Shown one piece after another: positions 5,295 to 24,810 of a stretch of 32,000 nucleotides of DNA; position 1 is the stretch's first letter; each line of letters begins with the position of its first letter. Origin of the DNA: an uncultured Erysipelotrichaceae bacterium (GTDB lineage Bacteria > Bacillota_I > Bacilli_A > Erysipelotrichales > Erysipelotrichaceae); contig OW818668.1 of NCBI GenBank assembly GCA_942493105.1, positions 390,001 through 422,000 on the forward strand. The letters run 5' to 3'. The translations under genes were made by a program, and so were the position numbers. Below the pieces are notes generated by a model that was not told the origin of the DNA, made no database searches, and saw only the letters and a list, made by a program, of their open reading frames with translations.

Positions 5295-5325
5295 TGTCTG
5301 TTTCCTCCAGAATCTTGAACACTTG

Positions 5326-7470: not shown

Positions 7471-8382
7471 TTCTTTCCTTGCTTTCCGTGAAGTGTGGAG
7501 TTAGTGCCGCCTGTGGCAGTAGTGAACTCGACGATTCTGCACTTAATAAACCGACTCGATTACCCTGGTTGACCATCATTGGTCATTTGACATTTGCATC
7601 AGTCGATTAAAACAAACTCGATCAAAGTAACTGAGGCATAGAGTTTTAAAACATTTAGTCACTTGGGTTTTGTTTAGAGTAATAACCTCCCGTGAATAAA
7701 CATTTGAACAACGGTTCATATGTAGTTCATCATAAAGAAACACACTCATAAAGTCAATAGGTTATTTACCTTAATCCAGTCTATACTTCTTTAACAATTC
7801 TCCGATTAGCTACAACCACCAATCAACTCTGCGTGATATCCAAACAATCTAGGAAACGTACACATCCAAAATCTAAGTTGATCCATATTTGCGACTCCAA
7901 TTCTCATGTTCTCCGCTATAGTTAACAAACCCGCTAAATCAGTGGGTTTGTTGATGGTCAGAGAGCATTTTAACCATACAATGACCATAAAAACTATTCT
8001 CACTTTAAACGAGCCTAAGGGGAGCAGATTATGAGATTTGAATTTCTCCCTATCACCGCTTTACCAGGTCTTCAAACCCAATAAATCCTCAAAAATCATA
8101 TACTCTTTTACTGGCTCTTACATTTTATATAGTCAGAAGAATGTTATTATCGTAACGTTATACCACTATGATATTAAGCAAAAGGACTTTGCTTTTCTCA
8201 ACACATCCCAATCCAAGAGATCATCAGAAACAAGGACTCACAATTTGATAGTGATCTCGTCAATGTTTTCGTTAAACTATTCAAAGTTGCACGGATTTGA
8301 GCATAAAAATTTAGGAACTAGTCATTTGATCAGATCCCCGACAAATAATGATTAGTTACACCCTAACTACTGAGTAAATAGT

Positions 8383-8464: not shown

Positions 8465-9292
8465 TTATTTCTCTCGCAAATTTTTCCAAACCAATGCCAT
8501 GACCACTATATATCCGTAATGAAGTATCAGCTGAATCCATTCTGGCTTTGAGTACCAACCTAATGTAACATATAACGGAATACCCAGTACCCCGTCTTTG
8601 TGATTCAGAATCGTTCCTGACAGATCAAAAGCCTTCGTTAAGAGGATATTGTTGGCGCTGATGACCGCCAATGCTTTTAATGCCGATAAACCTTCATGAA
8701 CCGCATATCCAAGCAAGAATCCGGCTTGAAGAATCAAATAGACCAACGTGATATTAAATAACACTCTCAAGTTTACTTTGACAAGCGATTTGTAAATCAA
8801 GACTGACAGGATCAAAGCCAATAAGATCCCAACGCCTATTGAAGCTAAAGTATATTGCCCGGCAAAGGTAAAGATGGCAATCTCTGCGCCTTCTCTAGTG
8901 ACCATGATGAACGCCACGCTGAATAGTCCGGCTTTTGATAAACTCTGTTTAACCTGGCTTTGAACTTCGTTGACCATGTTGCTTCCATGTTTGATCATCC
9001 AATAAATGAATGTTGTCACGAAGATCAGGGCTACGATACTGGCTCCGCTTTCCCAAATCTTTGTAATCTCAGCAGTTTTTTGAATGGCGGAAGAGACCAC
9101 AAATAGAAATCCTCCGATAACTAAGGAAGCTAAGATTCCGGTGAATGCGCCATTGAAGATAATCCGCTTGTATTCATTTTTCTTAATTTGAGTAAGGTAC
9201 TGCAAAATAATCGTAACAATCAAAAATGCCTCAAGCCCTTCTCTAAATCCCATAATAAATCCTGGTATAAATGTGCTCATTTCAATCTCCAT
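8465..9292 (-). CDS. FTR1/EfeU-family (iron/lead transporter family) permease; orphan, with no efeO/efeB partners in the window
   Basis: Two REGxE motifs (REGLEAFLIV and REGAEIAIF) in a 7-TM protein. An alternative start at 9280 (MSTF...) has a better-placed GGAG. Confidence 0.85.
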   Translation of the reverse strand: MEIEMSTFIPGFIMGFREGLEAFLIVTIILQYLTQIKKNEYKRIIFNGAFTGILASLVIGGFLFVVSSAIQKTAEITKIWESGASIVALIFVTTFIYWMIKHGSNMVNEVQSQVKQSLSKAGLFSVAFIMVTREGAEIAIFTFAGQYTLASIGVGILLALILSVLIYKSLVKVNLRVLFNITLVYLILQAGFLLGYAVHEGLSALKALAVISANNILLTKAFDLSGTILNHKDGVLGIPLYVTLGWYSKPEWIQLILHYGYIVVMALVWKNLREK

Positions 9293-9628
9293 TTCTTTCT
9301 AAATAACACAAATCAATATGCAACTTCTCAATTCCCTTAAGGAACTGATATTTTTCAAATGCTATGCTATTATAAAGCATCCATTTATATAAGTGTGTTT
9401 TACTATCTCTCACATCCTTTCAGTCTGTACAACAAGACCAATAAACAAGTAATCATCTGCGAGAATCGCTATTTGCTCTTAAAGACTTTCATTTAGTTAT
9501 AGCGCGTAGATATTATATATTCCGACTAGATACACCCAGTCTTAAAACTTACTCCAAATAGCCCTATAACGACTTATATTTAAGACACAATTAATCGATA
9601 CTCTTGCACCTTTTTCGAAGAAATTTGA

Positions 9629-9663
9629 ATCTCCATATATTCTACATAACTATTCGCTATAGT
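9629..9663 (+). promoter_or_regulatory. direct-repeat (7-4-7) activator box plus -10, promoter P5
   Basis: ATCTCCA (9629-9635), TATA, TTCTACA (9640-9646), 11 nt, TATAGT (9658-9663). Same geometry as four other sites in the window (see findings). Confidence 0.6.
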
Positions 9664-9692
9664 GATGATGTCGAAAGACATGGAGGTTATCA

Positions 9693-9788
9693 ATGCTTGG
9701 TCAAGCACTAGCAAATTGCATTCATACCTGTGGGCTTCACGGGCAAGAATTAGCAGCTTGTATTCAGATGATGCTTAAAGGATTCTAA
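9693..9788 (+). CDS. unannotated 31-aa Cys/His/Met-rich small protein MLGQALANCIHTCGLHGQELAACIQMMLKGF
   Basis: ATG at 9693 with GGAGG (9682-9686) at 6-nt spacing. Promoter P5 lies about 30 nt upstream and a perfect 12-bp terminator hairpin about 100 nt downstream. It is below the ORF-track length cutoff. Confidence 0.5.
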   Translation: MLGQALANCIHTCGLHGQELAACIQMMLKGF

Positions 9789-9891
9789 CAAACTTACTGC
9801 TTCGAATCTTGGTGTAATCTAATTTCTTCATCCCTTCTCCCCCCCTAAATGGTCCTTGAATTAACACAACCAAGATTATTGACTAACTACG

Positions 9892-9922
9892 AAAAAGAGT
9901 TTATGCAGGATAAACTCTTTTT
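9892..9922. terminator. bidirectional terminator hairpin
   Basis: Perfect 12-bp stem aaaaagagttta/taaactcttttt with a 7-nt loop. Confidence 0.7.
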
Positions 9923-9960
9923 CATATTTGAAAGGAATCACTAACATTCTTAATCAATAA

Positions 9961-9987
9961 AAAAGCTAGGATTTGATCCTAGCTTTT
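9961..9987 (-). terminator. terminator of the cueP-copZ-SHOCT operon
   Basis: Perfect 12-bp stem aaaagctaggat/atcctagctttt with a 3-nt loop. On the minus strand it is followed by TTTTTTATT, 8 nt after the stop at 9995. Confidence 0.75.
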
Positions 9988-9994
9988 AGCTTAT

Positions 9995-10642
9995 CTATTT
10001 CAGCACTTCCAACATTCTCGAATATTCTTCTCGTGTGATCTCACCACGTGCATATCTTTGTTTTAGAATATTAAGTGCGTTGTTGTCAGTAGAGATTGTT
10101 TGTTGTTTCGAATTTCGAGTGAGTAGATATACAACCACGCCGACCAGGGCAATTAACCCAAGCAGACCGACGATCATCCAAACCCAACCGAAACCACCCA
10201 TCATGCCTCCATACCCAGGTAAGGTACCAATCTGGTTACTATAATATCCGTAGCCACCCATCATACCTCCATACGCCATCATGCCTCCGGCTCCCATGAA
10301 AGTCATCATCGTGATGGGGATACCAGCCAAATAGTCATATCCAACTCTGATATGAACTGCTGTTAAAGATGCTGAACCATCACCACCTAAGGCAATGTCC
10401 ATTCTGTCGTGAACCGCGGTATTTCCGATAACTTTTTCCATAACTGAATCACCAAGCTCTTCAAGTCGAGCTGAGGTCACTTTCGAGATATCAATTTGAT
10501 CAGTACTGGAAATACTCTGTTCTTGTCTTATTTCTGCAATAATCGTATCAACACTCTTTAGTTGCATGCTATCAGCCTTGACACTGACAATGGTAAACAT
10601 CATTAATCCTAAGACAAACGTAAACGAGACTAATTTCTTCAT
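9995..10642 (-). CDS. secreted/membrane-anchored Gly/Met-rich protein with a C-terminal SHOCT domain
   Basis: Signal peptide; His/Met-containing ectodomain (GNTAVHDRMDIALGGDGS...VHIRVG); GGMM-type repeats (GAGGMMAYGGMMGGYGYY...GYGGMMGGFGW); one TM helix; C-terminal ILKQRYARGEITREEYSRMLEVLK (SHOCT signature). Confidence 0.75.
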   Translation of the reverse strand: MKKLVSFTFVLGLMMFTIVSVKADSMQLKSVDTIIAEIRQEQSISSTDQIDISKVTSARLEELGDSVMEKVIGNTAVHDRMDIALGGDGSASLTAVHIRVGYDYLAGIPITMMTFMGAGGMMAYGGMMGGYGYYSNQIGTLPGYGGMMGGFGWVWMIVGLLGLIALVGVVVYLLTRNSKQQTISTDNNALNILKQRYARGEITREEYSRMLEVLK

Positions 10643-10689
10643 GTTACGCTCCTTTCGAGCTTATCTATCACATGCACAACATACACCTA

Positions 10690-10899
10690 TTAATTAATTG
10701 ATACCACTTTATAGCCCGCTTTTTCAACAGCCAAAGCTAAGACTTTGTTTGCGACATCACTTTTCAAAACAACAATCGCTGTTTTATCACCGATATCTAC
10801 CTTTACATCCATGACCTCTTTAATTCCATAAAGTTGAATATTGACTAGGCCAGCACAATGACTGCAATGCATTCCTTCAATAAAAATCGTCTTTCTCAT
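10690..10899 (-). CDS. copZ: CopZ-like copper chaperone (single HMA domain)
   Basis: 69 aa with a GMHCSHCAG (MxCxxC) motif in a ferredoxin-like HMA pattern. Confidence 0.85.
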   Translation of the reverse strand: MRKTIFIEGMHCSHCAGLVNIQLYGIKEVMDVKVDIGDKTAIVVLKSDVANKVLALAVEKAGYKVVSIN

Positions 10900-10931
10900 T
10901 TTGAATCTCCTTTTGATTCATATCAGCTAAG

Positions 10932-11513
10932 CTATGAAAGCTTTAGTGGGGTTGTTAAGCAGGTATCACTTTTTGCATAAGTTGTAATGGTTTTGGTAAC
11001 AGATAACCCATTATAACTTATGGTCAATGTCGCTTCGATATCCCTAGGCAACCAAATCCCTATGAAACCAGAATTCATGCTCTTTACTTTCTGATCTGTT
11101 ATTACCGTTCCGTCCTTTTTAACAATAGAAACATTGAATTCTTTGTTGAATAGTTCTCCTCGGCAGGACACTAAGTTATGTGTTTGGCAAGGATGAACTT
11201 CATTAATATAAGGCGCGAATGATAGATAAAATTCATTGGTGGGAAGCTTGAAATCGTATTGTTTATCGTTGTCATAAAGAATAAGAGTTGTTCCAGTAAT
11301 GGAAGCATTGAGTCCATCTTTCTCATTGGTTATACTATCGAGCTTATTAACCATATCCTTAACGCTGAGATCAGCAAGACCGTATTTCTTAAGCATTTCT
11401 GCTCTTGCTTCATTTGGAGCAAAAAGTTTTGGCACCAATATGAATGAGGATATCACTATGGCTCCTACTACTGCGACAAATGTAATGGTTTTTTTGAGTG
11501 ATGATTTTATCAT
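10932..11513 (-). CDS. membrane-anchored CueP-family metal-binding protein
   Basis: Start reassigned to MIKSSLKK... at 11513, which has an AAGGAG SD; the ORF-track extension to 11597 runs over the promoter. N-terminal TM helix. Three Cys residues are spaced 8 and 68 residues apart (HPCQTHNLVSC ... SDTCL). As I recall, this matches the C96/C104/C172 spacing of Salmonella CueP. Confidence 0.6.
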   Translation of the reverse strand: MIKSSLKKTITFVAVVGAIVISSFILVPKLFAPNEARAEMLKKYGLADLSVKDMVNKLDSITNEKDGLNASITGTTLILYDNDKQYDFKLPTNEFYLSFAPYINEVHPCQTHNLVSCRGELFNKEFNVSIVKKDGTVITDQKVKSMNSGFIGIWLPRDIEATLTISYNGLSVTKTITTYAKSDTCLTTPLKLS

Positions 11514-11582
11514 TGTTCTCCTTAGATTAAAATCCAGTCGATCATAGTATGATCGTTCAATCCGATCTCTTTCTATATCTCG

Positions 11583-11617
11583 ATTATAGGATCGCAATTT
11601 GTAGAAGTTATGTAGAA
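11583..11617 (-). promoter_or_regulatory. direct-repeat activator box plus -10, promoter P1 (cueP-copZ-SHOCT operon)
   Basis: Minus strand: TTCTACA (11617-11611), TAAC, TTCTACA (11606-11600), 11 nt, TATAAT (11588-11583). No -35 hexamer. Confidence 0.7.
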
Positions 11618-11642
11618 AAAAAGAATCTCAACGCTGAGACTC
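11618..11642 (-). terminator. terminator after the histidine kinase gene
   Basis: Minus strand: GAGTCTCA-gcgt-TGAGATTC followed by a T7 run that merges into the distal TTCTACA repeat of P1. Confidence 0.6.
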
Positions 11643-11647
11643 TTCAA

Positions 11648-13036
11648 TCATTTAGGAAGTATTACGGTAAAAGTACTGCCCGTGCCCACTTCACTTTGAA
11701 CTTCGACATGTCCGCCATGGGCCATCACAATGGATTTGACGATCGTCAATCCGATGCCGGAACCTCCTGTTGCTCTGTTTCTCGATTTATCAGCACGATA
11801 GAAACGCTCGAAGATATAGGGTAATTCATCTTGAGGGATTCCACTTCCATTATCAACAACATCCATAATCACTTCATGGTCCGTTTCCGAGAATTCGATG
11901 TTTATTAAGCCTTTAGGTTGAGTATATTTAATCGAATTGGTCAGCAAGTTGATGATGACTTGGGTCATTCTTGCAGGATCAACATGAACCCTTGAACATG
12001 ACCCATTGATCGACACTTTCATTTCTTTTTCTTTGATTTGATATTCGAGTTTCTCAACTCCTTGTTTTGTTAACTCAACCAAATCGGCATCTGTCTTTTC
12101 CAACTTAAGATTTCCATCTTCAACGATGGCTAAACTTTCTAAATCTTTTACGATATTTGTAATGCGAAGCACCTCATCATAACTGCTTTTAAGCCGTTCA
12201 GGAGAGGGTTCTAGCAGTCCGTCCATCATTGCTTCAATAGTTATTCTGAGCGTTGTGAGGGGGGTACGCAGCTCATGGGCCACATCTGAAGTCAACTGCT
12301 TCTTCAAACTTTCTTGTTTATCCAACGAACCGGCCAGCTGATTCACTGACTCGATCAAATTATCTACTTCAGTGAGCTTTGATTTCTCTTGGATCCTGAT
12401 TTTATAATCGCCTTGAGAGATTTTTTCGGTTGCCAAAATGGTTGTCAAAATGGGCATACTGATTCGTCGAGAGATCAAATAACCCAGGATAAGAGATATC
12501 AATAGCGATACTGCACCAACCAGAAGTAAAATTGAACTTAATTGACTCAAGAAGTCAAAATCGTTATCGGAATAAAAATAGGGTCCAAAATAGGTCACAT
12601 TGACTCTTCCAATTTGTTGCGAAGACAATTCGATGGAATAATCCGTAGCACTGAATTTACCATTACTTCCTGGAAATTTGGATAACATGTTGTGTGTAAT
12701 GTCTTCTTTGATTTGCACGCAGGTCGACATATCCCACACTTCAGCATCCCAGACAGATTTGTTGCTATCATCAAAAACCTTGATGATGTATCCGTCATAA
12801 AGTGCATACATACCAATGGTATGCACATATTCTACATTCCAAGTTTTCGTCTCAGGATTGTACTGTTGTCCCAAACTATAAACGATCTCATTGATGGAGG
12901 CCTGTTGCTGCTTGGTAATGTACTCTTTGAATTGCTGATTGATAAAATAACTGGACAATGAACTGATGATCGCAATCAAAACAAGCGCAACAGCAGCGAT
13001 TGATAATGTAAGTCTTGATCTTAAACTGCCTTTCAT
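11648..13036 (-). CDS. sensor histidine kinase (2 TM, about 130-aa extracytoplasmic loop, HAMP, HisKA, HATPase_c)
   Basis: H-box VAHELRTPLT, N/G boxes (LLTNSIKYT, DNGSGIP, GGSGIGLTIVKSIV), and two hydrophobic helices flanking a large loop. Confidence 0.9.
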   Translation of the reverse strand: MKGSLRSRLTLSIAAVALVLIAIISSLSSYFINQQFKEYITKQQQASINEIVYSLGQQYNPETKTWNVEYVHTIGMYALYDGYIIKVFDDSNKSVWDAEVWDMSTCVQIKEDITHNMLSKFPGSNGKFSATDYSIELSSQQIGRVNVTYFGPYFYSDNDFDFLSQLSSILLLVGAVSLLISLILGYLISRRISMPILTTILATEKISQGDYKIRIQEKSKLTEVDNLIESVNQLAGSLDKQESLKKQLTSDVAHELRTPLTTLRITIEAMMDGLLEPSPERLKSSYDEVLRITNIVKDLESLAIVEDGNLKLEKTDADLVELTKQGVEKLEYQIKEKEMKVSINGSCSRVHVDPARMTQVIINLLTNSIKYTQPKGLINIEFSETDHEVIMDVVDNGSGIPQDELPYIFERFYRADKSRNRATGGSGIGLTIVKSIVMAHGGHVEVQSEVGTGSTFTVILPK

Positions 13037-13735
13037 TTACTGACCTCCAAACTTATATCCGATGCCATGTACGGTGATGATGTAAACTGGATTTCTCGGA
13101 TCTGTTTCGATTTTCTGTCGGATATTTTTGATGTGACTATCAACGGCACGATCATAACCTTCAAAATCTTCGCCTAAAGCAATCTCTATGAGTTCTTCTC
13201 GAGTGAAAGTTTTGTTGGGGAACTTGATGAGCGAGGCGAAAATTCTAAATTCATTAGGTGTAAAGTTTACGGTGTTGAGTTTCTTGGTGACAATTCGGTT
13301 CTCGAAATCAACGACCAAATCTGAATTACCAAAAATACTCTTTTGATAAAGCGGTGTTAAATCATCTTTGGACCGACGCAATACTGCTTCCATTCTTGCG
13401 TTAAGCTCTTTTAAACCAAAAGGTTTGGTGATGTAATCATCTGCTCCATAATCAAGCCCATTAACCAAATCAGCTTCTGTGACTTTTGCTGTCAGCATAA
13501 TAATCGGAATTCTTGATAGTTGCCGGATTTTCATGCAAACTTCTTCCCCTGAAATACCTGGCAACATTAAATCGAGCAAAACCAACGAGATCTGATTCTT
13601 TTTAAACAACTCAAAACCATGTTCACCATTTTCGGCAGTGATTACTTTATATCCCTTAGATTCAAGGAAAGTTTTCACGATCTCAATGATCTTAACCTCA
13701 TCATCAATAATCAAAATGGTTGGCTTTTCGTTCAT
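13037..13735 (-). CDS. OmpR/PhoB-family response regulator
   Basis: Receiver domain (ILIIDDE...DLMLPG...TAK) plus a winged-helix C-terminus (LTPNEFRIF...VHGIGYKF). Its stop abuts the kinase start. Confidence 0.92.
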   Translation of the reverse strand: MNEKPTILIIDDEVKIIEIVKTFLESKGYKVITAENGEHGFELFKKNQISLVLLDLMLPGISGEEVCMKIRQLSRIPIIMLTAKVTEADLVNGLDYGADDYITKPFGLKELNARMEAVLRRSKDDLTPLYQKSIFGNSDLVVDFENRIVTKKLNTVNFTPNEFRIFASLIKFPNKTFTREELIEIALGEDFEGYDRAVDSHIKNIRQKIETDPRNPVYIITVHGIGYKFGGQ

Positions 13736-13793
13736 AAATCAAATGCCTCCTAAAGGGCAAAACCCAAGTCCTTGCGGAATTGGGCTGTAATCT

Positions 13794-14000
13794 TTATGCG
13801 ATGTCGTATCCGGCATCAACAATAGCCAGTTTGATTGAATCTAGTGACAATTTTTCCGCGTCGTATTCAATTTTAACTGTTTTAGCGGATAAATCAACTT
13901 CAACGTCTTTTGACCCTTTAAGAGCCAAGACTGACGTTTTGATGGCATGGACACAATGTGAACAGGACATCCCATTTACACTTAGTATTTCAGTTTTCAT
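13794..14000 (-). CDS. copZ: CopZ-like copper chaperone (single HMA domain)
   Basis: 68 aa with a GMSCSHCVHAIK motif. Confidence 0.85.
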   Translation of the reverse strand: MKTEILSVNGMSCSHCVHAIKTSVLALKGSKDVEVDLSAKTVKIEYDAEKLSLDSIKLAIVDAGYDIA

Positions 14001-14040
14001 TTTATACCTTTCGAGGTCAACTCATGACCTATATTTTTGA

Positions 14041-15427
14041 TTACTCAATGACGTTTACTGAGCTTCTAATCATGCCCATCCAACAGTTGTACGAGAGTTT
14101 TCCAGTTTTGGTTGGAGTAAATTCCAGAACATTATCCCCTTCTTCAAGTTGGTACTGAATTCCCAATGACTTGATTTCAAATCGATAATTACAGCCTGTT
14201 AATTGATCTGTTCCAACATGAATGGTCCATTTTACCGGGACACCTACTTTGACCGTGATGGGTTCATAGCTTCCGTTATATACCTCACTGGTCACTGTTT
14301 GAACACCATTTTCAACAACAGCCGCATTTCCAGAACTACTACCACTCCCAAAGTTGAACAAGTTGCTTACAGAAAAGGACGGTAATTGAATGCCTGAAAC
14401 GGCCATTCCGGTTTGAAACATTGCGAAACCTAAAACGATAACCAACACTGCACTAACTTGCATCATTTTAGCTGTGAACTGTTTACTTAGAAATGAACTT
14501 AATGCACCGAGTCCAAACATCAGCGGAACGGTTCCTAAGCTAAATACCAACATCGACAAGGCGCCTTTAACTGGATCCCCGGTTGATAAGGCATATAGTT
14601 GCATTGCTTGTAAAGGACCACAAGGCATTAAACCGTTCAATAGACCAACATAGAACGGGCGATTCTTACTGACACCTTTCTCTTTACCGATCAATCTGGC
14701 AAAGATCTTAGGCATCCGAGGATTGAATTTTCTTAAGCCTGGAAAAATATTGAGCATGTTGATTCCCATGATAACCATGAAGATACTTGCGCCGATCGCA
14801 ACGATGCCTTTAGCTGGACCAGAGAAACTAACGACTGATCCTAAAGCACCAACTACACCACCAATGATGGTATAAGAAACCACTCTTCCAAGCATTGTAT
14901 AAAATGCTTGGCATGAAGTTGTTTATTCCGCCTTTATCAGTATTTTCAGCTTTTTGTGGGATACACTGCGATAAGTTAATACCACCGCACATGGCGACAC
15001 AATGGACAGAGGTCAAGATTCCAATCACAAACAAAACACCATAACTCATCCCGGCTTTCGCTTCAGGGAATACATTGAAAACATTCAGTAGGCCAAACTT
15101 GTTGGCAATCATGTACAAAATATACAAGATAACAAAGATGGTCAAGATGTCGATCAGTTTCTCTTTTGTGCTGACTGTTTTCGCGCCAGTTAAAGTAGGA
15201 GTATTCGAATTACCTTTCACTTTATAATCTAGGGACTCAATCGCTCTTTTTATTTCACGAAGACTAATGACATCATCATGATAGTTTACTCGAACTGTAT
15301 TGGTTGAATAACTGGCTTTTACGCTGATGATTCCGCCGGTTTTACGAAGTTTGCTTTCTATGCGGTTTTCACAGCCGACACAGGTCATTCCTTCGATTTG
15401 AAGTGTTTTTCTTTCGAACTTTTCCAT
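14041..15427 (-). pseudogene. frameshifted HMA domain + TauE/SafE (DsbD_2-like) membrane domain + C-terminal cupredoxin-like domain protein
   Basis: ORFs 14828-15427 and 14041-14895 are the two halves of one gene. The N-part has GMTCVGCENRIE and TM helices. Its reading ...PSILYN then shifts frame to LGRVVSYTIIGG.... Removing one nt near 14893 (TAC AAT g CTT GGA) restores the family motif YNLGRxxSY. The C-terminus carries a C...YNCWMGM motif. Confidence 0.75.
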
Positions 15428-15507
15428 TTCTTGCCTCCTTACGACACTCGCAAGTTAGCACTTTGAGTGTGATCATTTTACCTAAACAACTAATTTATTT
15501 GCATCTA

Positions 15508-15768
15508 CTAATGGCAACTTGGTTTATCTTGAGATTTGTTTTCAGATACTTGTTCTTCACTATGATGATGGTCCGTTGATCGGTGCATGAGTGGCATCAT
15601 TAGAAAGTGAGAGAGCGGGCATAATAGAAACAACGCATAAGGTAGAAATCTGGTAAGAGAAGCACCTGAGCTTGGAACTATCGCCCACGCCACAAGACCC
15701 AATATCGGAGCTGCAATACATAAAATCATCAACCATTTAGGCATCTTATGCCCACTCTGTTCATTCAT
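15508..15768 (-). CDS. DUF2933-like small membrane protein with a His-rich tail
   Basis: Two TM helices and LLCPLSHFLMMPLMHRSTDHHH, which is CPLxHxxMM-type and typical of small proteins next to cop genes. Confidence 0.65.
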   Translation of the reverse strand: MNEQSGHKMPKWLMILCIAAPILGLVAWAIVPSSGASLTRFLPYALFLLCPLSHFLMMPLMHRSTDHHHSEEQVSENKSQDKPSCH

Positions 15769-15793
15769 AATGTTTCTTTCTTAGTTTACTCAA

Positions 15794-16123
15794 CTAGTTA
15801 CCAATTTGGTGCAATCGTTTTATCGAAACAAACAACTCATCGATGGTTTGATCGTCGATCTCACCTGGTTTATCTTTCAGACAAGTCTGAACATGATTCT
15901 CAAGGATCATTCTTCCTACAGAATACAAGGCAGATTGTACTGCGTTGACTTGAATCAGAATATCATCACAGTACTCTCCTTGGTTTACCATTTTGTTTAT
16001 TCCTCTGATTTGACCTTCGATCTTGCGAAGTCTAAGATCCAGGTCTTCACTTTTACACCGGGAACGACTTACAGCAACTTGTATATTTCTAAGTATCGGT
16101 TCGTCAACTTCGTGCGATTTCAT
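15794..16123 (-). CDS. csoR: CsoR-family copper-sensing repressor
   Basis: RLRKIEGQIRGINKMV...YCDDILIQ...ENHVQTC. This gives the C-H-C ligand pattern of Cu(I)-sensing CsoR/RcnR (DUF156) proteins. Confidence 0.85.
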   Translation of the reverse strand: MKSHEVDEPILRNIQVAVSRSRCKSEDLDLRLRKIEGQIRGINKMVNQGEYCDDILIQVNAVQSALYSVGRMILENHVQTCLKDKPGEIDDQTIDELFVSIKRLHQIGN

Positions 16124-16126
16124 TTT

Positions 16127-16795
16127 CTATTTTAAGTTGAAGGGTTTTAATAGCTTTTCAACTTCTACTTTTTTTCCAGAAGCATCCATGACTTCAACCT
16201 TTGCGAAAATCCATCCTTCGACATTGGCTACATCAACACCTGCATCCGAGAAGACCTTAGGATCAAGAACGAATACAATATCTTTATCATTAGCTGCTAA
16301 ATCTTTAGCCCATTCGAACTTATTGCCATCGCCCAAATCAATACCGTAATGGGCAAGTGCCTCATGATAACCCAAGGTATCTCTGCTCAGTTTTACAAGT
16401 TCCTTGAAAGAGGCTTCCGGTGTAGCTTGGGCGGTTGCTGAGAAATCTTGTTCACCCAATGTTTGACCCACCATAATCATGCCATCGGCAAACATACCTG
16501 CCGGGAGTTTTGTAACATCCAAACCTGCATCAATAAAGGGTTGAGCATCAGTTTCAAGCATGACATCATGAGGTGCTGTTGTCTTAAAATTAGTACTAAA
16601 CAGGAATCGAGATGATCCATCCGGAGCACTTAGTGACCATGCATTCAGTTCTGAATCAGATGTGACATCCGACAATGCTACAACTTCATTGAAGGATGAA
16701 ATCCCATATTTAGCGATAACATCAGTTTGCGTACAAGCCGACAGTGCGGCTAAGACTAAAGCAGAAACTCCAGAAACGATTATAAATTTTTTCAT
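16127..16795 (-). CDS. lipoprotein of unknown function with an internal two-fold duplication
   Basis: Lipobox LSACTQ. The two roughly 95-aa halves align (SSFNEVVALSDVT/ASFKELVKLSRDT; PFIDAGLDVTKLP/VFSDAGVDVANVE). It is tightly packed between copA and csoR. Confidence 0.7.
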   Translation of the reverse strand: MKKFIIVSGVSALVLAALSACTQTDVIAKYGISSFNEVVALSDVTSDSELNAWSLSAPDGSSRFLFSTNFKTTAPHDVMLETDAQPFIDAGLDVTKLPAGMFADGMIMVGQTLGEQDFSATAQATPEASFKELVKLSRDTLGYHEALAHYGIDLGDGNKFEWAKDLAANDKDIVFVLDPKVFSDAGVDVANVEGWIFAKVEVMDASGKKVEVEKLLKPFNLK

Positions 16796-16833
16796 TTTTT
16801 TCCTTTTCTTCCTAGTTATAAGGTTTGAACGAT

Positions 16834-19278
16834 TTAAGTCTTAAAGCGTTGGTTAACACAGAGACTGAAGATAAAGACATGGCTGCTGCTTGCGAAGACC
16901 GGGTTCAATACCGGACCTCCAAATATATAGAGGGCTCCAGCCGCTAATGGAATCCCTAAGACGTTGTAGGCAAAGGCCCAAAACAGATTCTGTTTGATGT
17001 TTCGAATCGTACTCTTGCTCAATTGAATGGCAGTAGGTACTTCCATCAAATCGCTTCTCATAAGTACGATGTCTGCAGATTCCATTGCTACATCAGTTCC
17101 AGAGCCTATGGCTATACCTACGTTGGCTTGAACAAGTGCCGGAGCATCATTGATACCATCACCAACCATCGCTACGATTCGACCTTCACTTTGAATTTTC
17201 TTAACTTCAAATGCTTTGTCTTGAGGTAATACTTCCGACAAGACGCGATCAATGCCAACCTGTTTAGCGATTGCCGCAGCAGTCTTTTTGTTGTCACCCG
17301 TGATCATGACAGTTTGAATGCCCATTTTATTGAGTTTCTGAATGGCTCGGGCACTGCTTGGTTTCACAACATCTGCAACCGCAATAATTCCGGCAAATCT
17401 ACCTTCAACCGCAATGAACATCGGAGTTTTTCCCTGATCCGCTAAATCGTCAGAGATTTTCTCAAATTCGTTAAGTTCAATGTTGTTTTCTCGGATCAGC
17501 TTCTGATTACCAAGTAATACAGAGAGTTGATTGATTTTCACTTTGATCCCATGTCCTGGAATCGCTTCAAAGGAATCAATATTTTGAAATTCCAGTATGT
17601 CTTGTTCAGCTCTTCTAACGATTGCTTGACCAAGAGGGTGTTCAGACCCCTTCTCGGCAGATGCTGCGATCTGAAGGATTAGCTCTTCAGCCAGAAATCC
17701 CGGAACAGTCACGATGTCTGTGACTGCAGGTTTACCTTCTGTAAGTGTGCCCGTTTTATCAAAGACAATCGTATTGATTTTGTGTGCTGTTTCAAGGGCT
17801 TCACCGCCTTTAATCAGGATTCCATTTTCTGCGCCTTTTCCTGTTCCAACCATGATTGCGGTCGGTGTTGCCAACCCAAGAGCACAAGGGCAAGCGATAA
17901 CCAGAATGGCAATAAAAATTGATAATGAGAAGGTCACTGTTTGGCCACTGATGAACCATGCAAGAGCAACTACGGTAGCAATAATGAAGACGATAGGAAC
18001 AAAGTATCCTGAGACGATATCAGCCAGCTGGGCAATCGGTGCTTTTGAACCTTGAGCATCTTCTACCAGTTTTATAATCTGTGCCAGCGCAGTATCTGCG
18101 CCAACTTTGGTAGCTTTGAAATGAATCATTCCGTTTGTATTGAGGCTGGCTGCATAGACAGCATCTCCGATTTTCTTTTCAACCGGCATGCTTTCACCTG
18201 TCAGCATCGATTCATCAATCGCGGTATATCCAACTGTGATTTGACCATCGACTGGGATCTTCTCACCCGGCTTGACAATAAGTACATCACCTACTTCTAC
18301 TTCTTCCACCGGGATTACAACTTCTTCTCCGTTATGGATCACAAGGGCTGTTTTGGGAGCCAAACCCATTAATTTCTTTATGGCTTCTGATGTTTTCCCT
18401 TTGGAAACTGATTCAAGATATTTACCCAACAGGATCAATGAAATAATGACCCCTGCTGTTTCGAAATACATGTTGTTTACAGCTGCAAAATCACCGATTG
18501 AGATGAGATATGTTGCGTATAAACTATAAAGGACAGCCGCTGTTGTTCCCATTGCGATCAAAGAATCCATATTGGGTGATCTATGCCAAATCGCTTTGAA
18601 TCCAACCACGTAGAATCGGTTACCGGCAATCAGCACCGGAATAACAAGCAAGATCTGTGTATAGGCAAAGACCAAAGGATATTTCATAGGATCAAGGAAT
18701 CCCGGAACAGGCAAAGATAACCATTTGATCATCGGGGCCATAGCCAAGTAAAGCAATGGAATACTGAATACTGTCGAAACAACGAACTTAATCCATAATA
18801 CTTTGATTGCTTTTTGTTTTCTTGCCTTATCTTCATCTACCTTATCCACACCAATACTTTCGAGTGGTTTGTAACCGATCTTTATAATCTCAGATTTGAT
18901 CTGAGAAAGCCGGATGATGGATGGGTCATAATGGATAGTTGCTTTTTCTGTTGCGAGATTGACGTTGGCAGATATTACCCCATCCAATTTGGAAACTGTC
19001 TTTTCTATTCTTTGAGCACACGAAGCACAAGTCATTCCTTCGATGGGCATCGTGATTTGTTTTTCAGTTTGATCAGCGTGAAGTTCATATCCCGCTTTAC
19101 TGACTGAACTTTGGATATCGACCAACTTGATTATTGAATCATCGTAACTCAATGTTAATTTTTCCGTCGCGAAGTTAACGCTCGATTCCGTAACACCAGT
19201 TAATTTTCTGGTAACTTTTTCTATCCTCTGTGCGCAAGCTGCACAAGTCATCCCTGTTATGCTAAGAGTTTGTTGCAT
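16834..19278 (-). CDS. copA: Cu(I) P1B-1 ATPase CopA with two HMA domains; its C-terminal roughly 25 codons are out of frame (possible pseudogene or sequencing error)
   Basis: MTCAACAQ and [11 protein letters not shown] motifs, [17 protein letters not shown] and GDGINDAP. The annotated tail ...[23 protein letters not shown] is non-canonical. The adjacent frame reads [25 protein letters not shown] and ends at 16812, which is the canonical CopA terminus. Confidence 0.85.
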
Positions 19279-19372
19279 TTCAATCCCTCCTTAGTTGAAT
19301 TTGATACCTGACAGTCGTATGGTATCGGCACTTTGTGTTTTTCGCCCTAGATATAAAGGTTCTGAGCCTTTC

Positions 19373-19384
19373 TACCCTCGGGTG
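19373..19384 (-). promoter_or_regulatory. candidate CsoR operator (TACCC-tc-GGGTG)
   Basis: A GC-rich pseudo-palindrome in AT-rich DNA. It lies about 12-23 bp downstream of the P2 -10 hexamer and resembles Firmicute CsoR sites of the TACCC-N-GGGTA type. Confidence 0.45.
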
Positions 19385-19395
19385 AAGACAGTGTT

Positions 19396-19430
19396 AGTTT
19401 ACAAATTAGATATGTAGAACTTATGTAGAA
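19396..19430 (-). promoter_or_regulatory. direct-repeat activator box plus -10, promoter P2 (copA operon)
   Basis: Minus strand: TTCTACA (19430-19424), TAAG, TTCTACA (19419-19413), 11 nt, TAAACT (19401-19396). Confidence 0.7.
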
Positions 19431-19481
19431 TTATGATATGGTCGTCATTTAAAACTTCACTTTAAGTTGATTTAATCAAGT

Positions 19482-19514
19482 AAAAAGGAACCCCGTGATT
19501 ACGGAGTTCCTTTT
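19482..19514 (-). terminator. terminator of copB
   Basis: Stem aaaaggaaccccgt/acggagttcctttt (13 of 14 bp) with a 4-nt loop. A T-run follows on the minus strand, 19 nt after the stop. Confidence 0.75.
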
Positions 19515-19532
19515 AGTGTTTAGCGAGGCTTT

Positions 19533-21806
19533 TTAGTCAATCTTCAATAATCTGGCATTGATCGAGACGATGATTGTGCTGAGTGACATAAAGACGGCAC
19601 CCATTGCTGGACTAATGACGATTCCTTGGTTGATCAATATACCAGCTGCTAATGGCAGAGCAATGATATTGTATCCGGTCGCCCAAAGCAGATTCTGAAT
19701 CATCTTACGATAAGTTGCCTTGGATAGTTTCAGTATATTGACTACGTCCAACGGGTTACTCTTGACCAGGATTACATCTGCTGTTTCAATCGCAACATCA
19801 GTTCCTGCCCCGATCGCAATACCCAAATCTGCCAAAGCCAGCGATGGAGCATCATTGATGCCATCTCCGGTCATGGCAACCTTCTTGCCCGACTTGATCA
19901 AGTCTTTAATCTTGTTCGCTTTATCTTGAGGTAGAACTTCGGCGATGATTTGATCAATACCAATCTTTTTACCTACATAATTGGCAACCTTTGTGTTGTC
20001 TCCTGTCAGCATGATGGATTCAATATGCATTAACTTTAGCGTGGCTACAGCTTCAATTGCAGAGTCTCTAATGATATCCGACAACGCGATATATCCCTTT
20101 AAAGATCCATTATCAAGTACGAAGATCACCGTTTTTCCTTCAGCAGCCAATTTTTCATAATTTGTTTTATCAAAATCGATATTCTCAGAAATCATATACC
20201 CTGGACTCACAATCCTGATTTCACGTTCAGAAACTTTTGCGATAAGCCCTTTTCCAGGTAAAGCTTGGTAGTCTTTAACTTCTAGTAATTCAAGATACCT
20301 TTTCTTACCAGCTTTTACTAATCCTTTGGCAATGGGGTGTTCAGAGTTAGATTCTACTGAATAAACGAGAGTCAGCAATTCATTTTCTGAATAACCTATA
20401 GAAACAATGTCAGTGATTCCAAATTCGCCTTCAGTCAATGTTCCTGTTTTATCGAAGACCACGGCATTCAGTTTACGCGCTTCTTCAAAGGCAGCTCTGT
20501 TTCTGATTAATAAACCTTTCTTTGCTCCAATGCTGGTTGAAACAGCCGTTACTAAGGGTGTAGCCAATCCTAAAGCATGGGGGCAAGAAATGATAATAAC
20601 AGTAACAGCACGTTCGATCGCGAAACTCAGATCTTTGCCTAACATAATCCATACTGTGAATGTGGTGATACCACTGACAACAGCAATATAAAATAGCCAC
20701 TTCGCTGCCACATCGGCTAAACGTTGCGTGTTGGATTTTGATGCCTGCGCTTCTCTAACGAGCTTAATGACTTGAGATAGGAAAGTGGCTTCTCCGACAC
20801 GTGAGACAGTAAACTTTAGGACACCCTCTCCATTGATTGAACCGCCAATGATTTCGTCACCAACTGCCTTTTCTACAGGAACTGATTCCCCGGTCATCAT
20901 GGATTCATTCACTGAAGAGATACCTTCGTAAATGATGCCATCGAGTGGAATCTTTTCACCTGGTTTTACAAGCACTTTGAATCCTACCTTAAAGTGTCCA
21001 ACTGGATGATCCATGACATCACCGTTATCATGAATCATGTGGGCCACATCGGGCATGAGCTTGACTAATTCCTCTAAGGCTTTAGATGCACCCATAACAG
21101 ATTTCATTTCGATCCAATGACCGAGCAACATGATTGTGATCAGGGTTGCCAATTCCCAGAAGAAATCACCACCAGTCAGAACAAAGACAGTCAAAGCACT
21201 ATATATGTATGCAACCGAAATCGCGAGTGCAATCAACATCATCATAGCAGGCGCCTTCTTTTTCAATTCATCTAAGGCACCTATCAAGAATGGTTTTCCT
21301 CCATAGACAAATAGGATGGTGGACAGAGTAAACAGAATATAGGTATCACCAGTAAAGCGCCAGTTAACATTCATAAACATTTGAATCATTGGCGATAACA
21401 GTAAAACAGGTACGGTAATAAAAAGTGATACAAAGAAACGTCGTTTAAAATCATTAACCATCATCAAGTGATGATCATGATGATCTTCGTGGCCGACATG
21501 GTCATCATGTCCTTCATGATCTTTTGAACCATGATCCATTTTACTGTGATCCATGGAGTTGTGAGCCATCTTGTTGTGATCCATCATGTCGTGATCTGTT
21601 TTACTATGGTCCATGGAGTCGTGAGCCATCTTGTTGTGATCCAGCATGTCGTGATCCGTTTTACTGTGGGTCATAACATGATGTTCTCCCACACCAGTTT
21701 CAGGTTTGGTTCCATGTTCATGGTTATTCATTTTACTATGATCTTTTTCGCGATTTTTAAAATTTTCTTTGTAATGATTATCAACATCTATTTTCTTATC
21801 ATTCAT
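19533..21806 (-). CDS. copB: CopB-type (P1B-3, CPH motif) copper ATPase with a His/Asp/Met-rich repetitive N-terminus
   Basis: [26 protein letters not shown] and a C-terminal [15 protein letters not shown]. About 110 N-terminal residues are rich in H, D and M. Confidence 0.9.
21516..21668 (-). repeat. in-frame 60-bp tandem repeat (2 full copies plus a partial) inside the copB 5' region
   Basis: Encodes [20 protein letters not shown] / [20 protein letters not shown] / [11 protein letters not shown]. The DNA copies at about 21609-21668 and 21549-21608 differ at only a few positions. Confidence 0.85.
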
Positions 21807-21851
21807 TTTGTGTCCTTCTTTCTTGACGATGACTTTTGCTTCATTAACTTA

Positions 21852-21886
21852 ATCATAACACCATTCTGTGTATGAGATATGTAGAG
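21852..21886 (-). promoter_or_regulatory. direct-repeat activator box plus -10, promoter P3 (copB)
   Basis: Minus strand: CTCTACA (21886-21880), TATC, TCATACA (21875-21869), 11 nt, TATGAT (21857-21852). Confidence 0.6.
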
Positions 21887-21960
21887 TGTTAGCCTTATCA
21901 ATTAGGAAAAGATGTCAAAGTATGCGTTTTTGCCATTTTCTCGTCTAAAGTACTATGCTC

Positions 21961-21998
21961 AAAAAAAGCAATGAGACTGCATTTTCAGCCTCATTGCT
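21961..21998 (-). terminator. terminator of the second SHOCT gene
   Basis: 9-bp stem agcaatgag/ctcattgct plus inner ctg/cag pairing. On the minus strand it is followed by T7. Confidence 0.75.
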
Positions 21999-22014
21999 TC
22001 ATTACGATTATGTA

Positions 22015-22275
22015 TTAAACTAAGTCTTTCATATACTGTTCATATTGCTCTTTTGTAATCTCGCCTTTGGCATAACGACTCTTTATGATATCAATTGCTG
22101 ATCTACTGGAGTTCACTTCATAAACTCTTTCATGGTCATGTGCAGTTCCATGAGACATTCTTACAACTCCAAGAACAATCAACACAATAACGATGATGCA
22201 AATAAATCCGCCAAACCACATAAAGCCACCCATCATTCCATATCCCCATCCAAAATTTCCAAATCCGCCCATCAT
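22015..22275 (-). CDS. small Gly/Met/Trp-rich membrane protein with a SHOCT domain (86 aa)
   Basis: Start reassigned to MMGGFGNFGWGYGMMGG... at 22275, with a GAGGAAAG SD 8 nt upstream. The ORF-track extension to 22371 overlaps the P4 -10. One TM helix and a C-terminal IIKSRYAKGEITKEQYEQYMKDL (SHOCT). Confidence 0.7.
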   Translation of the reverse strand: MMGGFGNFGWGYGMMGGFMWFGGFICIIVIVLIVLGVVRMSHGTAHDHERVYEVNSSRSAIDIIKSRYAKGEITKEQYEQYMKDLV

Positions 22276-22366
22276 GATGCTTTCCTCTGACGATGTGATT
22301 CGTATAAACGAAATCTCTTCATCGCCGTTACTTTCTTTTTGAACACAAGAACGTGTTTCTAAAAAC

Positions 22367-22401
22367 ATCATATCAACAATATGTTACGAAAGTGTGTAGA
22401 A
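22367..22401 (-). promoter_or_regulatory. direct-repeat activator box plus -10, promoter P4 (SHOCT-2)
   Basis: Minus strand: TTCTACA (22401-22395), CACT, TTCGTAA (22390-22384), 11 nt, TATGAT (22372-22367). Confidence 0.5.
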
Positions 22402-22645: not shown

Positions 22646-23623
22646 TCATAAATGGGATTTAATATACTTAATAACTTTATCCATTTTGGCAAGACTCTCC
22701 TCATCAACAAGTAAATTGCAGTCAATGTCTGATCTTAACTTTTTCATCGACCTCAATGCACTTTCTCTGATCTTCAGTTGAGTTATCTTACCTGCACTGT
22801 TTAAACGCACATCAGTCGTTCTAGGTGGGTATTTTTTTCTCGGCGGTGCAACAATAGATTTGAAATTTGCCTTGGTTTTTTCATTGATATACTTCGTATT
22901 TCGATTTTTGGATGAACAATGAAAATACGTATCCTCTTCCATTTGCCTGGCGATATCGTAGAAATCCGATTTACTAAATGACAGCATTAGATTTATCATT
23001 GCCAGATTCAGATACCCAAGTCTGAATTGAGTGGTAAGATAATGATCAAAATCACGGGCAATCCTAATGAGGATATAAGCTTGTTTATCTCCGATATGCA
23101 ATGTATCAGCGAGGATCTCATTCGTCCTTCTTTGATGGACTGAAGGAATCTTCTTGTCTCGCATGACTTCGATTGCAGAAGTAATATACCGTGATTCAAC
23201 GAATTTTTGAAATATCGTTTTTTCTCTATCTTTTTCATTGTCAGAAATAATATACAAAACACTTTCCTCATAACTTAAAATCCTAAAGTAAAAACTCCTA
23301 ACCGATCTGAACTTTTCCAAACCTCTTTTTTCTACAAGGAATTTCAAAGCCTCGCATCTTCTATGCCCCTCCACAATCAAAAATCGTTTATCGTTTTTTG
23401 GATTTACTATGATCGAGATTGGGACTATGAGACCATACTCTTCGATATCATCTGCCAAAGAGCGAATTTGCCTTTGGTAGTCTTCTGAATTCAGTTCCAT
23501 GTCGTTATTTGGATGCGGATCAAAGCTATAGATATCTTCAATACCAAATAAACTTTTAGGTTCTTTAAAAATGTTATTTTGAGTATTCGAATTTGGCATC
23601 CCTTTGGCAACATGATCCTCCAT
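22646..23623 (-). CDS. ParB/Srx-fold N-terminal domain protein with a central HTH (KorB/ParB-like)
   Basis: IEDIYSFDPHPNN...LADDIEEYGLIVPISII...FLIVEGHRRCEALKFL matches the ParB N-domain pattern (GxRRxxA box). Start taken at the second ATG (23623), which has an AGGGAG SD. No parA was seen. Confidence 0.7.
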   Translation of the reverse strand: MEDHVAKGMPNSNTQNNIFKEPKSLFGIEDIYSFDPHPNNDMELNSEDYQRQIRSLADDIEEYGLIVPISIIVNPKNDKRFLIVEGHRRCEALKFLVEKRGLEKFRSVRSFYFRILSYEESVLYIISDNEKDREKTIFQKFVESRYITSAIEVMRDKKIPSVHQRRTNEILADTLHIGDKQAYILIRIARDFDHYLTTQFRLGYLNLAMINLMLSFSKSDFYDIARQMEEDTYFHCSSKNRNTKYINEKTKANFKSIVAPPRKKYPPRTTDVRLNSAGKITQLKIRESALRSMKKLRSDIDCNLLVDEESLAKMDKVIKYIKSHL

Positions 23624-23662
23624 TGGAGATTCTCCCTTCATAAAGAAAAGGAAATGACTTCC

Positions 23663-24160
23663 TTATCTTTCTATATCCAGTGATCTTGTCTTTGTAAGAT
23701 CAAGCATCAATCCAATATCTTCTGCTTTATAAATAACATCAAGACAACATGGAAGTGTTTCCATTACTTTGTCATAATCTACTAAAGCAATATCCATGGC
23801 ATACTTTGCAAGATGGCGATCCTCTTCATCGAAATCCTCTAAAACAAGATGGTAATCCATCTCCAGTAATTGTCTACTCGCAACTAAGAAAGCCTTTATT
23901 TCTTTACTGGATCCGGGGAAGAGTTTTAGGATCAGATCGTCCAATGACAACGGATTAGAGCGCAGTGAATCAAGATCACTCTCTAAAAGCACATAGGATG
24001 TTAGATATTCAGCAGCGAGAAAGAACGGATCGATCGATTCTCTTAATGATCTTTCAGTGTATTCAATTGGATGGTATATCTTCAATAGACTTGAGAAGTT
24101 TTTGATGTGTTCTTCATTCCCAAAGAAAGCATATTCGTCAAGAAATAACAGTTCGTTCAT
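23663..24160 (-). CDS. strongly acidic hypothetical protein (165 aa)
   Basis: AAGGAG SD. By my count it has 34 D/E versus 16 K/R. No recognisable motif. Confidence 0.6.
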   Translation of the reverse strand: MNELLFLDEYAFFGNEEHIKNFSSLLKIYHPIEYTERSLRESIDPFFLAAEYLTSYVLLESDLDSLRSNPLSLDDLILKLFPGSSKEIKAFLVASRQLLEMDYHLVLEDFDEEDRHLAKYAMDIALVDYDKVMETLPCCLDVIYKAEDIGLMLDLTKTRSLDIER

Positions 24161-24171
24161 TTTGTGCTCCT

Positions 24172-24408
24172 TTACAATCCGTAACGAGAAACATTGATAT
24201 TCATAAACTCAATAAAGTATTCGGTCGGTATTCGATAATGATCAAACCAACCATACTTGTCCTTACTCCGCTTGTATAGATCAGCCATTACCGGCTTTGC
24301 GCGTCTAAACCCGATTCCATGGAATTTTTCCAGTTCGTGATAACCAATGTAACGACCCAAGAGGATCTCTCTCGCTTCTGCATTACTGCAGGGTGTACAG
24401 CGGCTCAT
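24172..24408 (-). CDS. small hypothetical protein (78 aa), possibly DNA-binding
   Basis: Start placed at MSRCTPCSN..., where its ATG overlaps the upstream gene's TGA in an ATGA coupling motif (24405-24408). The ORF-track start at 24450 lacks an SD. Confidence 0.5.
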   Translation of the reverse strand: MSRCTPCSNAEAREILLGRYIGYHELEKFHGIGFRRAKPVMADLYKRSKDKYGWFDHYRIPTEYFIEFMNINVSRYGL

Positions 24409-24662: not shown

Positions 24663-24731
24663 GATTTGTCCTCCGGCGCCTCTATCATATCACAGTCCTT
24701 GATCAATATGAAGAATTATTTCAGATTTCTA

Positions 24732-24795: not shown

Positions 24796-24810
24796 TTGCC
24801 ATTGTTTTCA

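Follow-up and report, generated by a model that had tools for sequence, protein, structure and literature searches.

Five promoters with BaeR-type boxes as a predicted copper regulon of an island-borne two-component system in an uncultured Erysipelotrichaceae bacterium

The stretch of DNA analysed here (the window: 32,000 nucleotides of contig OW818668.1 from an uncultured Erysipelotrichaceae bacterium) carries an island with a cluster of copper genes, and in and beside this cluster lie five promoter sites, P1 to P5, that are all constructed on the same plan: a direct repeat of two 7-bp half-sites separated by 4 bp, followed 11 bp further on by a -10 hexamer. We propose, with a probability of roughly 0.7, that these are the activator-dependent promoters of a single regulon, which would be controlled by the island's own two-component system, an OmpR-family response regulator (RR) and its sensor histidine kinase (HK). 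The same architecture is found beside the orthologues of this RR in other genomes, and both the box and the recognition helix of the regulator resemble those of BaeR of Escherichia coli. A preliminary description of the window had predicted such a regulon, including the control by the system of its own genes, and this prediction is now supported by the enrichment of the architecture across 80 loci, by the copper genes and the RR-HK genes among its targets, by the recognition helix and by a co-variation between helix and box.

Direct reading of the window places all five sites at the coordinates, on the strand and with the sequence first reported for them (Table 1; coordinates refer to the 32,000-nt stretch, and each site is read toward its downstream gene). 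Their spacing is constant, all of them are intergenic and each is oriented toward a downstream gene, just as had been claimed. That they lack a -35 hexamer also holds, because a scan of the window for the sigma-70 -35/-10 consensus picks up none of the five. An extended -10 (TGnTATGAT) is present at both P3 and P4. At a tolerance of 3 mismatches, the strict pattern has 14 matches in the window against 4.99 +/- 2.48 expected; P1 and P2 match it perfectly, P5 has 2 mismatches, and P3 and P4 have 3 each. A more sensitive ranking was obtained with a weight matrix derived from 58 training sites, from which the window and the related loci L001 and L002 had been excluded. Among the ~64,000 window positions scored with this 35-bp matrix, the first five ranks are occupied by P5 (31.9), P1 (28.5), P2 (26.3), P4 (15.9) and P3 (15.8), and the next match has a score of only 11.3. 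In 30 Markov-simulated windows no random score was as high as those of P1, P2 and P5, and scores at the level of P3 and P4 arose on average 0.03 times per window. When the box is scored without the -10, P5, P2 and P1 are still far in front. P1, P2 and P5 are thus far above chance, whereas the boxes of P3 and P4, taken alone, are near the chance level; these two are significant only because a weak box stands in exact register to a good -10. The sixth-ranking match, at 22025 on the plus strand, is antisense within the SHOCT_B coding region and has a poor -10 (TGTAAT), and it was therefore treated as a chance match. A box-like sequence at 9824 (plus strand) has no -10 and was also discarded.

Table 1. 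Promoter sites, regulatory genes and associated elements of the copper cluster
Feature	Position	-10 hexamer	Whole site	Strand	Sequence	Remarks
P1	box 11600..11617	11588-11583	11617-11583	minus	TTCTACA-TAAC-TTCTACA-N11-TATAAT	heads cueP-copZ-SHOCT_A
P2	box 19413..19430	19401-19396	19430-19396	minus	TTCTACA-TAAG-TTCTACA-N11-TAAACT	unit copA-lipoprotein-csoR-DUF2933-HMA/DsbD_2-copZ-RR-HK
P3	box 21869..21886	21857-21852	21886-21852	minus	CTCTACA-TATC-TCATACA-N11-TATGAT	degenerate; extended -10 TGTTATGAT; heads copB
P4	box 22384..22401	22372-22367	22401-22367	minus	TTCTACA-CACT-TTCGTAA-N11-TATGAT	proximal half degenerate; extended -10 TGATATGAT; heads small Gly/Met-rich SHOCT_B gene, start 22278
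P5	box 9629..9646	9658-9663	9629-9663	plus	ATCTCCA-TATA-TTCTACA-N11-TATAGT	heads 31-aa open reading frame (ORF) 9693-9788
OmpR-family RR gene	13037..13735			minus		proposed binder of the boxes
HK gene	11648..13036			minus		2 transmembrane segments, ~130-aa extracellular domain, HAMP-HisKA-HATPase
CsoR-family Cu(I) repressor gene	15794..16123			minus		PF02583, 8.5e-26; inside the P2 operon
Intrinsic terminator 3' of the kinase gene	11620..11645			minus		abuts the P1 box; -12.6 kcal/mol, z = -3.6
Intrinsic terminator 3' of copB	19483..19514			minus		upstream of P2; -20.4 kcal/mol, z = -6.2
Intrinsic terminator 3' of SHOCT_B	21965..22000			minus		upstream of P3; -22.5 kcal/mol, z = -6.0
Inverted repeat	19303..19326			minus	GATACC-N12-GGTATC	copA 5' leader, ~25 bp before the start codon; kept in L001

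Comparative evidence comes from 80 loci that encode relatives of the RR, taken from a collection of species-representative genomes and amounting, together with the window, to 1.31 Mb. The closest relatives of the regulator (81% identity) are encoded in two Erysipelotrichaceae metagenome-assembled genomes (MAGs), and one of the loci, L001, is syntenic with the window; the others, with 46-67% identity, are mostly from MAGs of the Clostridia, Synergistales and Nitrospirota/Thermodesulfovibrionales, plus a Paenibacillus and an actinomycete. We counted the pattern TTCTNCA-N4-TTCTNCA, with no more than 2 mismatches, followed by TANNNT. With the hexamer at an offset of 11 bp there are 81 occurrences, compared to 6-17 when the spacer within the box is set to 2, 3, 5, 6 or 7 and 6-26 at the remaining offsets between 4 and 21 bp, which is a 5- to 13-fold enrichment of the exact geometry. 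Since the counts peak at spacer 4 and offset 11, the specificity lies in the geometry and not in the words alone. Intergenic positions account for 69 of the 81 occurrences. The consensus derived from these reads wTCTnCA-TAaw-wTCTnCA-yA, with TG enriched where an extended -10 would have it, and ends in TAnnnT; the third position of the half-site is C in all but one of these 69 sites (68/69).

Most of these sites precede copper genes or the operon that encodes the regulator. Operons encoding HMA-DsbD_2 proteins are the most frequent target, and the others include CopA or csoR-copA, CueP, DUF2933-like peptides, small SHOCT proteins and secreted Gly/Met-rich proteins, FtrD-like CxxC proteins, DUF6803, DUF2680 and the RR-HK genes themselves. 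At most of the loci that lack a strict site, the matrix gives a good match ahead of the HMA-DsbD_2 operon, and the promoter-proximal half of this match is the better preserved one; the other loci are truncated by contig ends. Degenerate distal or proximal halves are common among the orthologous sites. The preliminary description had made conservation at orthologous genes a test of the motif. In this respect four of the five sites fare well: P1 has a counterpart upstream of cueP in L001 and L002; P2 retains its box and -10 in L001, where its upstream flank has diverged; P4 is present in L001 as TTCATCA-CACT-TTCGTCA-N11-TATGAT, with an alignment that stops exactly at the start of the box; and the P5 box is kept, along with the 31-aa ORF, in both L001 and L002. 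P3 is the exception, as discussed below. At four of the loci (L030, L039, L047 and L060, at ~9500-9700 or 400-1030), two box-type promoters stand back to back on opposite strands, one of them directed to RR-HK, with or without a small ORF in between, and the other to a secreted Gly/Met-rich or other protein; this divergent arrangement is absent from the window.

Several observations point to the RR of the island as the predicted binder of the boxes. It is, as had been noted, the sole response regulator encoded in the window, and the box travels with its orthologues across phyla. The recognition helix, DRAVDSHIKNIRQKIE (residues 195-210), is BaeR-like, and R196, D199, H201, K203, N204, R206, Q207 and K208 are invariant in 81/81 RRs with 46-81% identity to that of the window; these invariant residues match the invariant TCT.CA core of the half-site. 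Helix residue 197, on the other hand, co-varies with base 5 of the half-site, the one variable base: this base is mostly A at 9/9 of the loci with Ala197 against 5/36 of those with Thr, Val, Ser or Ile (Fisher p = 2e-6, in a test uncorrected for phylogeny).

The closest precedent for this combination of helix, box and register is BaeR, the regulator of BaeSR, a two-component system of E. coli and Salmonella that answers to envelope stress and metals. The sites published for this regulator are TCTNCANAA and TTTTTCTCCATDATTGGC (quoted in PMC3799227); the repeat unit of the island family, wTCTnCAtAa, matches the first of these position for position, and TTCTCCA-TDAT is the start of the second. 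The helix of the E. coli protein, DRTIDSHIKNLRRKLE, is nearly the same as that of the family, DR[AT][VI]D[ST]HIKNIRQKIE; RegX3 and MtrA, which are better overall matches of the RR in the PDB, differ from it in their recognition helix. Scoring with the matrix identified TCCTCCA-TTTT-TCTCCCT-N11-TACACT, with a third in-phase unit upstream, at E. coli mdtA (L201), TTCTCCA-TAAT-TGGCGCA-N11-TACACT at spy (L202) and TTCTCCA-CGAT-TGGCTCG-N11-TACAGT at acrD (L203). All three thus share the register, a TTCTCCA-type half-site 4+7+11 bp before a TAnnnT hexamer that is a candidate -10, but their proximal half is TGGC-like or degenerate, whereas both half-sites of the island family are clean repeats. The genetic organization is also parallel: mdtABCD-baeSR is autoregulated from the mdtA promoter (PMC7657598), and in both systems the genes for the regulator and kinase end a regulated transporter operon, which in the island is that of P2. 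The two regulons nonetheless differ in their content. In E. coli it consists of the RND pumps mdtABC and acrD and of spy, none of which is a target in the island; there, in a Gram-positive host, the predicted targets are the P-type ATPases CopA and CopB, CueP, CopZ, HMA-DsbD_2, the SHOCT proteins, DUF2933 and the 31-aa ORF. BaeR already exemplifies this promoter logic, box and helix; the mechanism is a conventional one and the box is a Gram-positive version of the BaeR box, not a new type of switch.

The same box is known from a second regulator, CopR of Corynebacterium glutamicum, which with its kinase CopS is also a copper-responsive OmpR-family system of a Gram-positive. Phosphorylated CopR binds its repeat and activates copper genes; its site, mapped by electrophoretic mobility shift assay, is TGAAGATTTgaTGAAGATTT, and a single genomic site was reported (PMC3140484). 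On the other strand this site (TGAAGATTTnnTGAAGATTT) reads ATCTTCA-TCAA-ATCTTCA, a 7-4-7 repeat within the consensus of the island family, and the identical 18-mer is found upstream of HMA-DsbD_2 in one of the loci with an RR relative (L029:5844). The sequence and layout of CopR were taken from metagenome contigs, which a scan with the C. glutamicum 20-mer had recovered; among the 120 matches listed, ~25 high-GC contigs carry a Corynebacterium-type island, which includes a CueP-like gene and one for a CopB-type ATPase. There are also differences: CopR is only 37% identical to the RR of the window, a level that leaves orthology unsupported; its box points in the opposite direction, 60 bp ahead of the copR ATG, and on the side of the divergent CueP-like gene it is not followed by a -10 hexamer at 11 bp. 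This divergent gene, at the position of cg3286 (L086 6810-7790 and ~25 similar high-GC loci), encodes a protein 33-35% identical to the CueP of the window, so that in both phyla CueP is found together with a regulator of this kind. The CopR-box 20-mer is also present in ~65 low-GC metagenome contigs (within L081-L200), which make up most of the matches listed, and there it is always part of the same conserved sequence, ATCTTCATCAAATCTTCAAGAAGCATACCACCTTG; neither copper genes nor RR relatives are located near these copies, which hence probably belong to an unrelated coding sequence.

The architecture of the sites had originally been likened to that of the pho box, and the counts of spacers and offsets, together with the missing -35, bear this out: there are two 7-bp repeats, a TAaw spacer and an 11-bp period, and the box, always at offset 11, substitutes for the -35. 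The promoter logic is the same as at the pho box of E. coli PhoB, in which two 7-bp direct repeats with a 4-bp AT-rich spacer and an 11-bp period stand in for the -35, some 10 bp before the -10. The pho-box half-site (CTGTCAT) is nevertheless a different one and the regulon of the island concerns copper rather than phosphate; the RR, with 189.3 bits against a cut-off of 296.2 for the PhoB model TIGR02154, is not a PhoB orthologue. The CusRS, CopRS and SilRS systems of Gram-negative bacteria likewise combine genes for copper or silver resistance with control by an OmpR-family system whose sensor is extracytoplasmic. Their copper box is described as an inverted repeat, and the AgrR site is a 6-4-6 inverted repeat. 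It was with this CusR/CopR type that the motif had been compared in the preliminary description; the appropriate Gram-negative comparator is BaeR, with TCTNCANAA, and the motif itself was thus already known.

Taken together, these features suggest the following mechanism. The kinase would most likely sense copper, and perhaps silver, outside the membrane by means of its extracellular domain, and would then phosphorylate the RR. Two RR molecules would bind head-to-tail on the two 11-bp units, at about -41 to -24 relative to the predicted transcription start, where they would replace the missing -35 and recruit RNA polymerase to the -10, which follows at exactly 11 bp and is often extended. In this manner the RR would switch on cueP-copZ-SHOCT from P1, the copA operon from P2 and the 31-aa peptide from P5; it would probably also switch on the small SHOCT gene from P4, and possibly copB from P3. 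P1, P2 and P5 should be strictly activator-dependent. The location of the RR and HK genes at the end of the P2 operon implies that the response, once triggered, would be subject to positive feedback, and the CsoR encoded in this operon probably adds a cytoplasmic control by Cu(I).

A number of points weigh against this proposal or limit its reach. With 3 mismatches each to the strict pattern, P3 and P4 are individually at noise level, and the -10 columns of the matrix by which they rank so highly are partly fixed in advance, a circularity that results from having picked the training sites for TAnnnT. The test for co-variation at residue 197 carries no correction for phylogeny. None of the family-level assignments is reached: the RR has 177.7 bits against a cut-off of 380 for the BaeR equivalog NF007982, the kinase has 270.6 against 500 (NF012163) and 240.4 against 603 (NF007837) for BaeS, and the CusR/CusS-type models are also missed (TIGR01387, RR, 135.9 against 279.2 bits; TIGR01386, HK, 220.2 against 292.55). 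When only the DNA-binding domain is considered, BaeR ranks 6th, behind MtrA, OmpR and YycF among others, and this ranking does not support BaeR as the best match of the whole domain and confines the similarity to the recognition helix. In view of the missed cut-offs and of this ranking, the system is best described as one that works like BaeSR without being assigned as its orthologue. Finally, copper is indicated as the signal only by the content of the regulon and by Cys and Met residues of the sensor that are partly conserved.

This last point raises the question of whether the same RR and boxes could serve a signal that is not specific for copper, such as envelope stress or zinc, silver, tungstate or indole-like compounds, with the copper specificity being contributed by CsoR, which is encoded in the operon. 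The BaeS models are the two best-scoring NCBIfam families of the kinase, although below their cut-offs, and E. coli BaeSR answers to several stresses; the putative metal ligands of the sensor are conserved only in part, with H, M or C in the column of C106 of the extracellular domain in 85% of 34 orthologues and M117 retained in 62% of them. Nonetheless, we consider a copper-unspecific signal unlikely, because at most of the orthologous loci RR-HK lie within or beside copper genes, the regulon is dominated by CopA, CopZ, CueP, HMA domains and CsoR, and the periplasmic domain of BaeS itself binds copper directly (PMC4780735). A far more improbable explanation is that the repeats are the target of a regulator whose gene lies outside the window and that their proximity to the RR is incidental. 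The host's PhoP would be a candidate, as its TTHACA repeats resemble TCTACA and the half-site of Bacillus PhoP differs from TTCTACA by one base. Against such an outside regulator, the architecture follows the RR orthologues through the Erysipelotrichaceae, Clostridia, Synergistales, a Paenibacillus and an actinomycete, the C at position 3 of the half-site is virtually invariant, residue 197 of the RR co-varies with the box, and the helix matches that of BaeR, whose known site is this very motif.

The extent of the regulon is a separate matter. It is possible, if on balance doubtful, that only P1, P2 and P5 depend on the RR, and that P3 and perhaps P4 are ordinary extended -10 promoters with a chance or decayed box. 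Scored by the box alone, P3 (11.6) corresponds to 0.5 and P4 (9.5) to 1.5 chance matches per window, and the TGnTATGAT common to the two may work without an activator, so that some basal activity could be expected of them. For P3, the weakest of the five, there is the further difficulty that it has no counterpart in the syntenic L001, where copB has instead a canonical CsoR operator, ATACCCTTGGGGGGTAT, ~230 bp upstream of its start. Both sites, however, have their -10 in the exact register, and the full architecture at their level of score is hardly ever produced by chance; P4 is kept in L001 with a conservation that begins at the box; and degenerate halves of the kind that they display are common in the orthologous sites as well as in the E. 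coli targets of BaeR. A regulon of the five promoters, with P4 as a probable and P3 as a possible member, remains our preferred reading.

CsoR is likely to be a second, cytoplasmic copper regulator of the cluster. The canonical operator of this repressor (ATACC-N7-GGTAT with a G-tract) is not found at any of P1 to P5; it is present in L001 (at copB), L009, L034 and L046, and in the last two of these it follows a box-type promoter. In the window the only candidate left is the inverted repeat GATACC-N12-GGTATC of the copA leader, which may be a CsoR operator of non-canonical type or may form a hairpin in the RNA. A second sequence, CACCCGAGGGTAG, directly after the -10 of P2 (~19384-19372), was rejected, as it is not conserved in L001. 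An inverted repeat AACAC-N6-GTGTT (22342-22357, minus strand) immediately follows the -10 of P4 and is conserved in L001, where it has gained a pair (AAACAC...GTGTTT). It may serve as a second operator, or fold into a hairpin at the 5' end of the SHOCT_B transcript. The cueP leader contains, between the -10 of P1 and the start codon, a hairpin with a perfect 7-bp stem, CGATCAT-ACT-ATGATCG (11539-11555, minus strand).

The preliminary description knew of no Firmicute regulon with this box, and our search of the literature (for the motif with copper, for copper two-component systems of Firmicutes and for DUF2933 with copper) also found no description of the box or of the regulon in Firmicutes; the nearest mention is of "CusRS homologues", at the level of annotation, in C. 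butyricum. We see an even chance that the island represents a widespread and as yet undescribed BaeSR-like system of the Bacillota, which senses extracytoplasmic copper and whose regulon would give a series of uncharacterised proteins a role in handling copper at the surface of the cell. If this is true, the HMA-DsbD_2, FtrD-like CxxC, DUF6803, DUF2680, DUF2933 and Gly/Met-rich SHOCT proteins, several of them domains of unknown function, would be tied to copper along with the 31-aa Cys peptide, and the Bacillota would have a defined extracytoplasmic copper-sensing regulon beside the cytoplasmic CsoR and CopY. BaeR, C. glutamicum CopR and the RR family of the island would then constitute one ancient specificity class, with a common helix, box and register, that spans Gram-negative and Gram-positive bacteria. 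The weight matrix can be used as it is, and the targets that it predicts are spread over many Clostridia, Erysipelotrichaceae and Synergistales. The promoters are clean as well as insulated, the strong terminators directly upstream of P1, P2 and P3 suggesting that each heads a separate unit, and they could serve as copper-inducible parts.

The gene calls of the copper cluster were confirmed with Pfam and NCBIfam, which identified the OmpR-type regulator, the HAMP-HisKA-HATPase kinase, CueP, two CopZ, two SHOCT proteins, CsoR, DUF2933, the HMA-DsbD_2 membrane protein, CopA and a His-rich CopB. The shorter starts that had been suggested for cueP and SHOCT_B fit both their Shine-Dalgarno sequences and L001. 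The 31-aa ORF begins 29 nt after the -10 of P5, has a good Shine-Dalgarno sequence and is of the same length and in the same position in L001 and L002; a Pfam search with it gave no match. Its initial label as a Cys/His ORF was an overstatement, since a comparison of the window with these two loci leaves only C9, C23 and a Met-Met pair invariant. Two genes are altered by the insertion of a single base. One insertion splits the HMA-DsbD_2 gene (14041-15427) into two ORFs at ~14885-14889 (GCTTGG, as opposed to GCTGG in L001), and the other changes the last ~20 residues at the 3' end of copA (~16890; GCAAGC, as opposed to GCAGC in L001); both extend a run of bases by one, and so they are presumably sequencing errors or the mark of a recent pseudogenisation.

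The cluster is part of a larger island (1088-8355 and 22646-25932) that is bounded by a tyrosine integrase (24811-25932). It also contains a third P1B ATPase with an ArsR-family regulator (2545-5330), an M23/LysM/G5 peptidase, a thioredoxin-like protein and an EfeU/FTR1-like permease (8465-9292). The integrase boundary and the additional metal ATPase mark the island as mobile, which makes it relevant to the spread of copper resistance among gut and farm bacteria. A known plasmid was rejected as its source, as a plasmid search with the 13-kb region gave only a 96-bp ATPase match in cyanobacterial plasmids. From 26264 on, the window continues with core genes, among them those for a NUDIX protein, an oxidoreductase and a liv-type ABC transporter.

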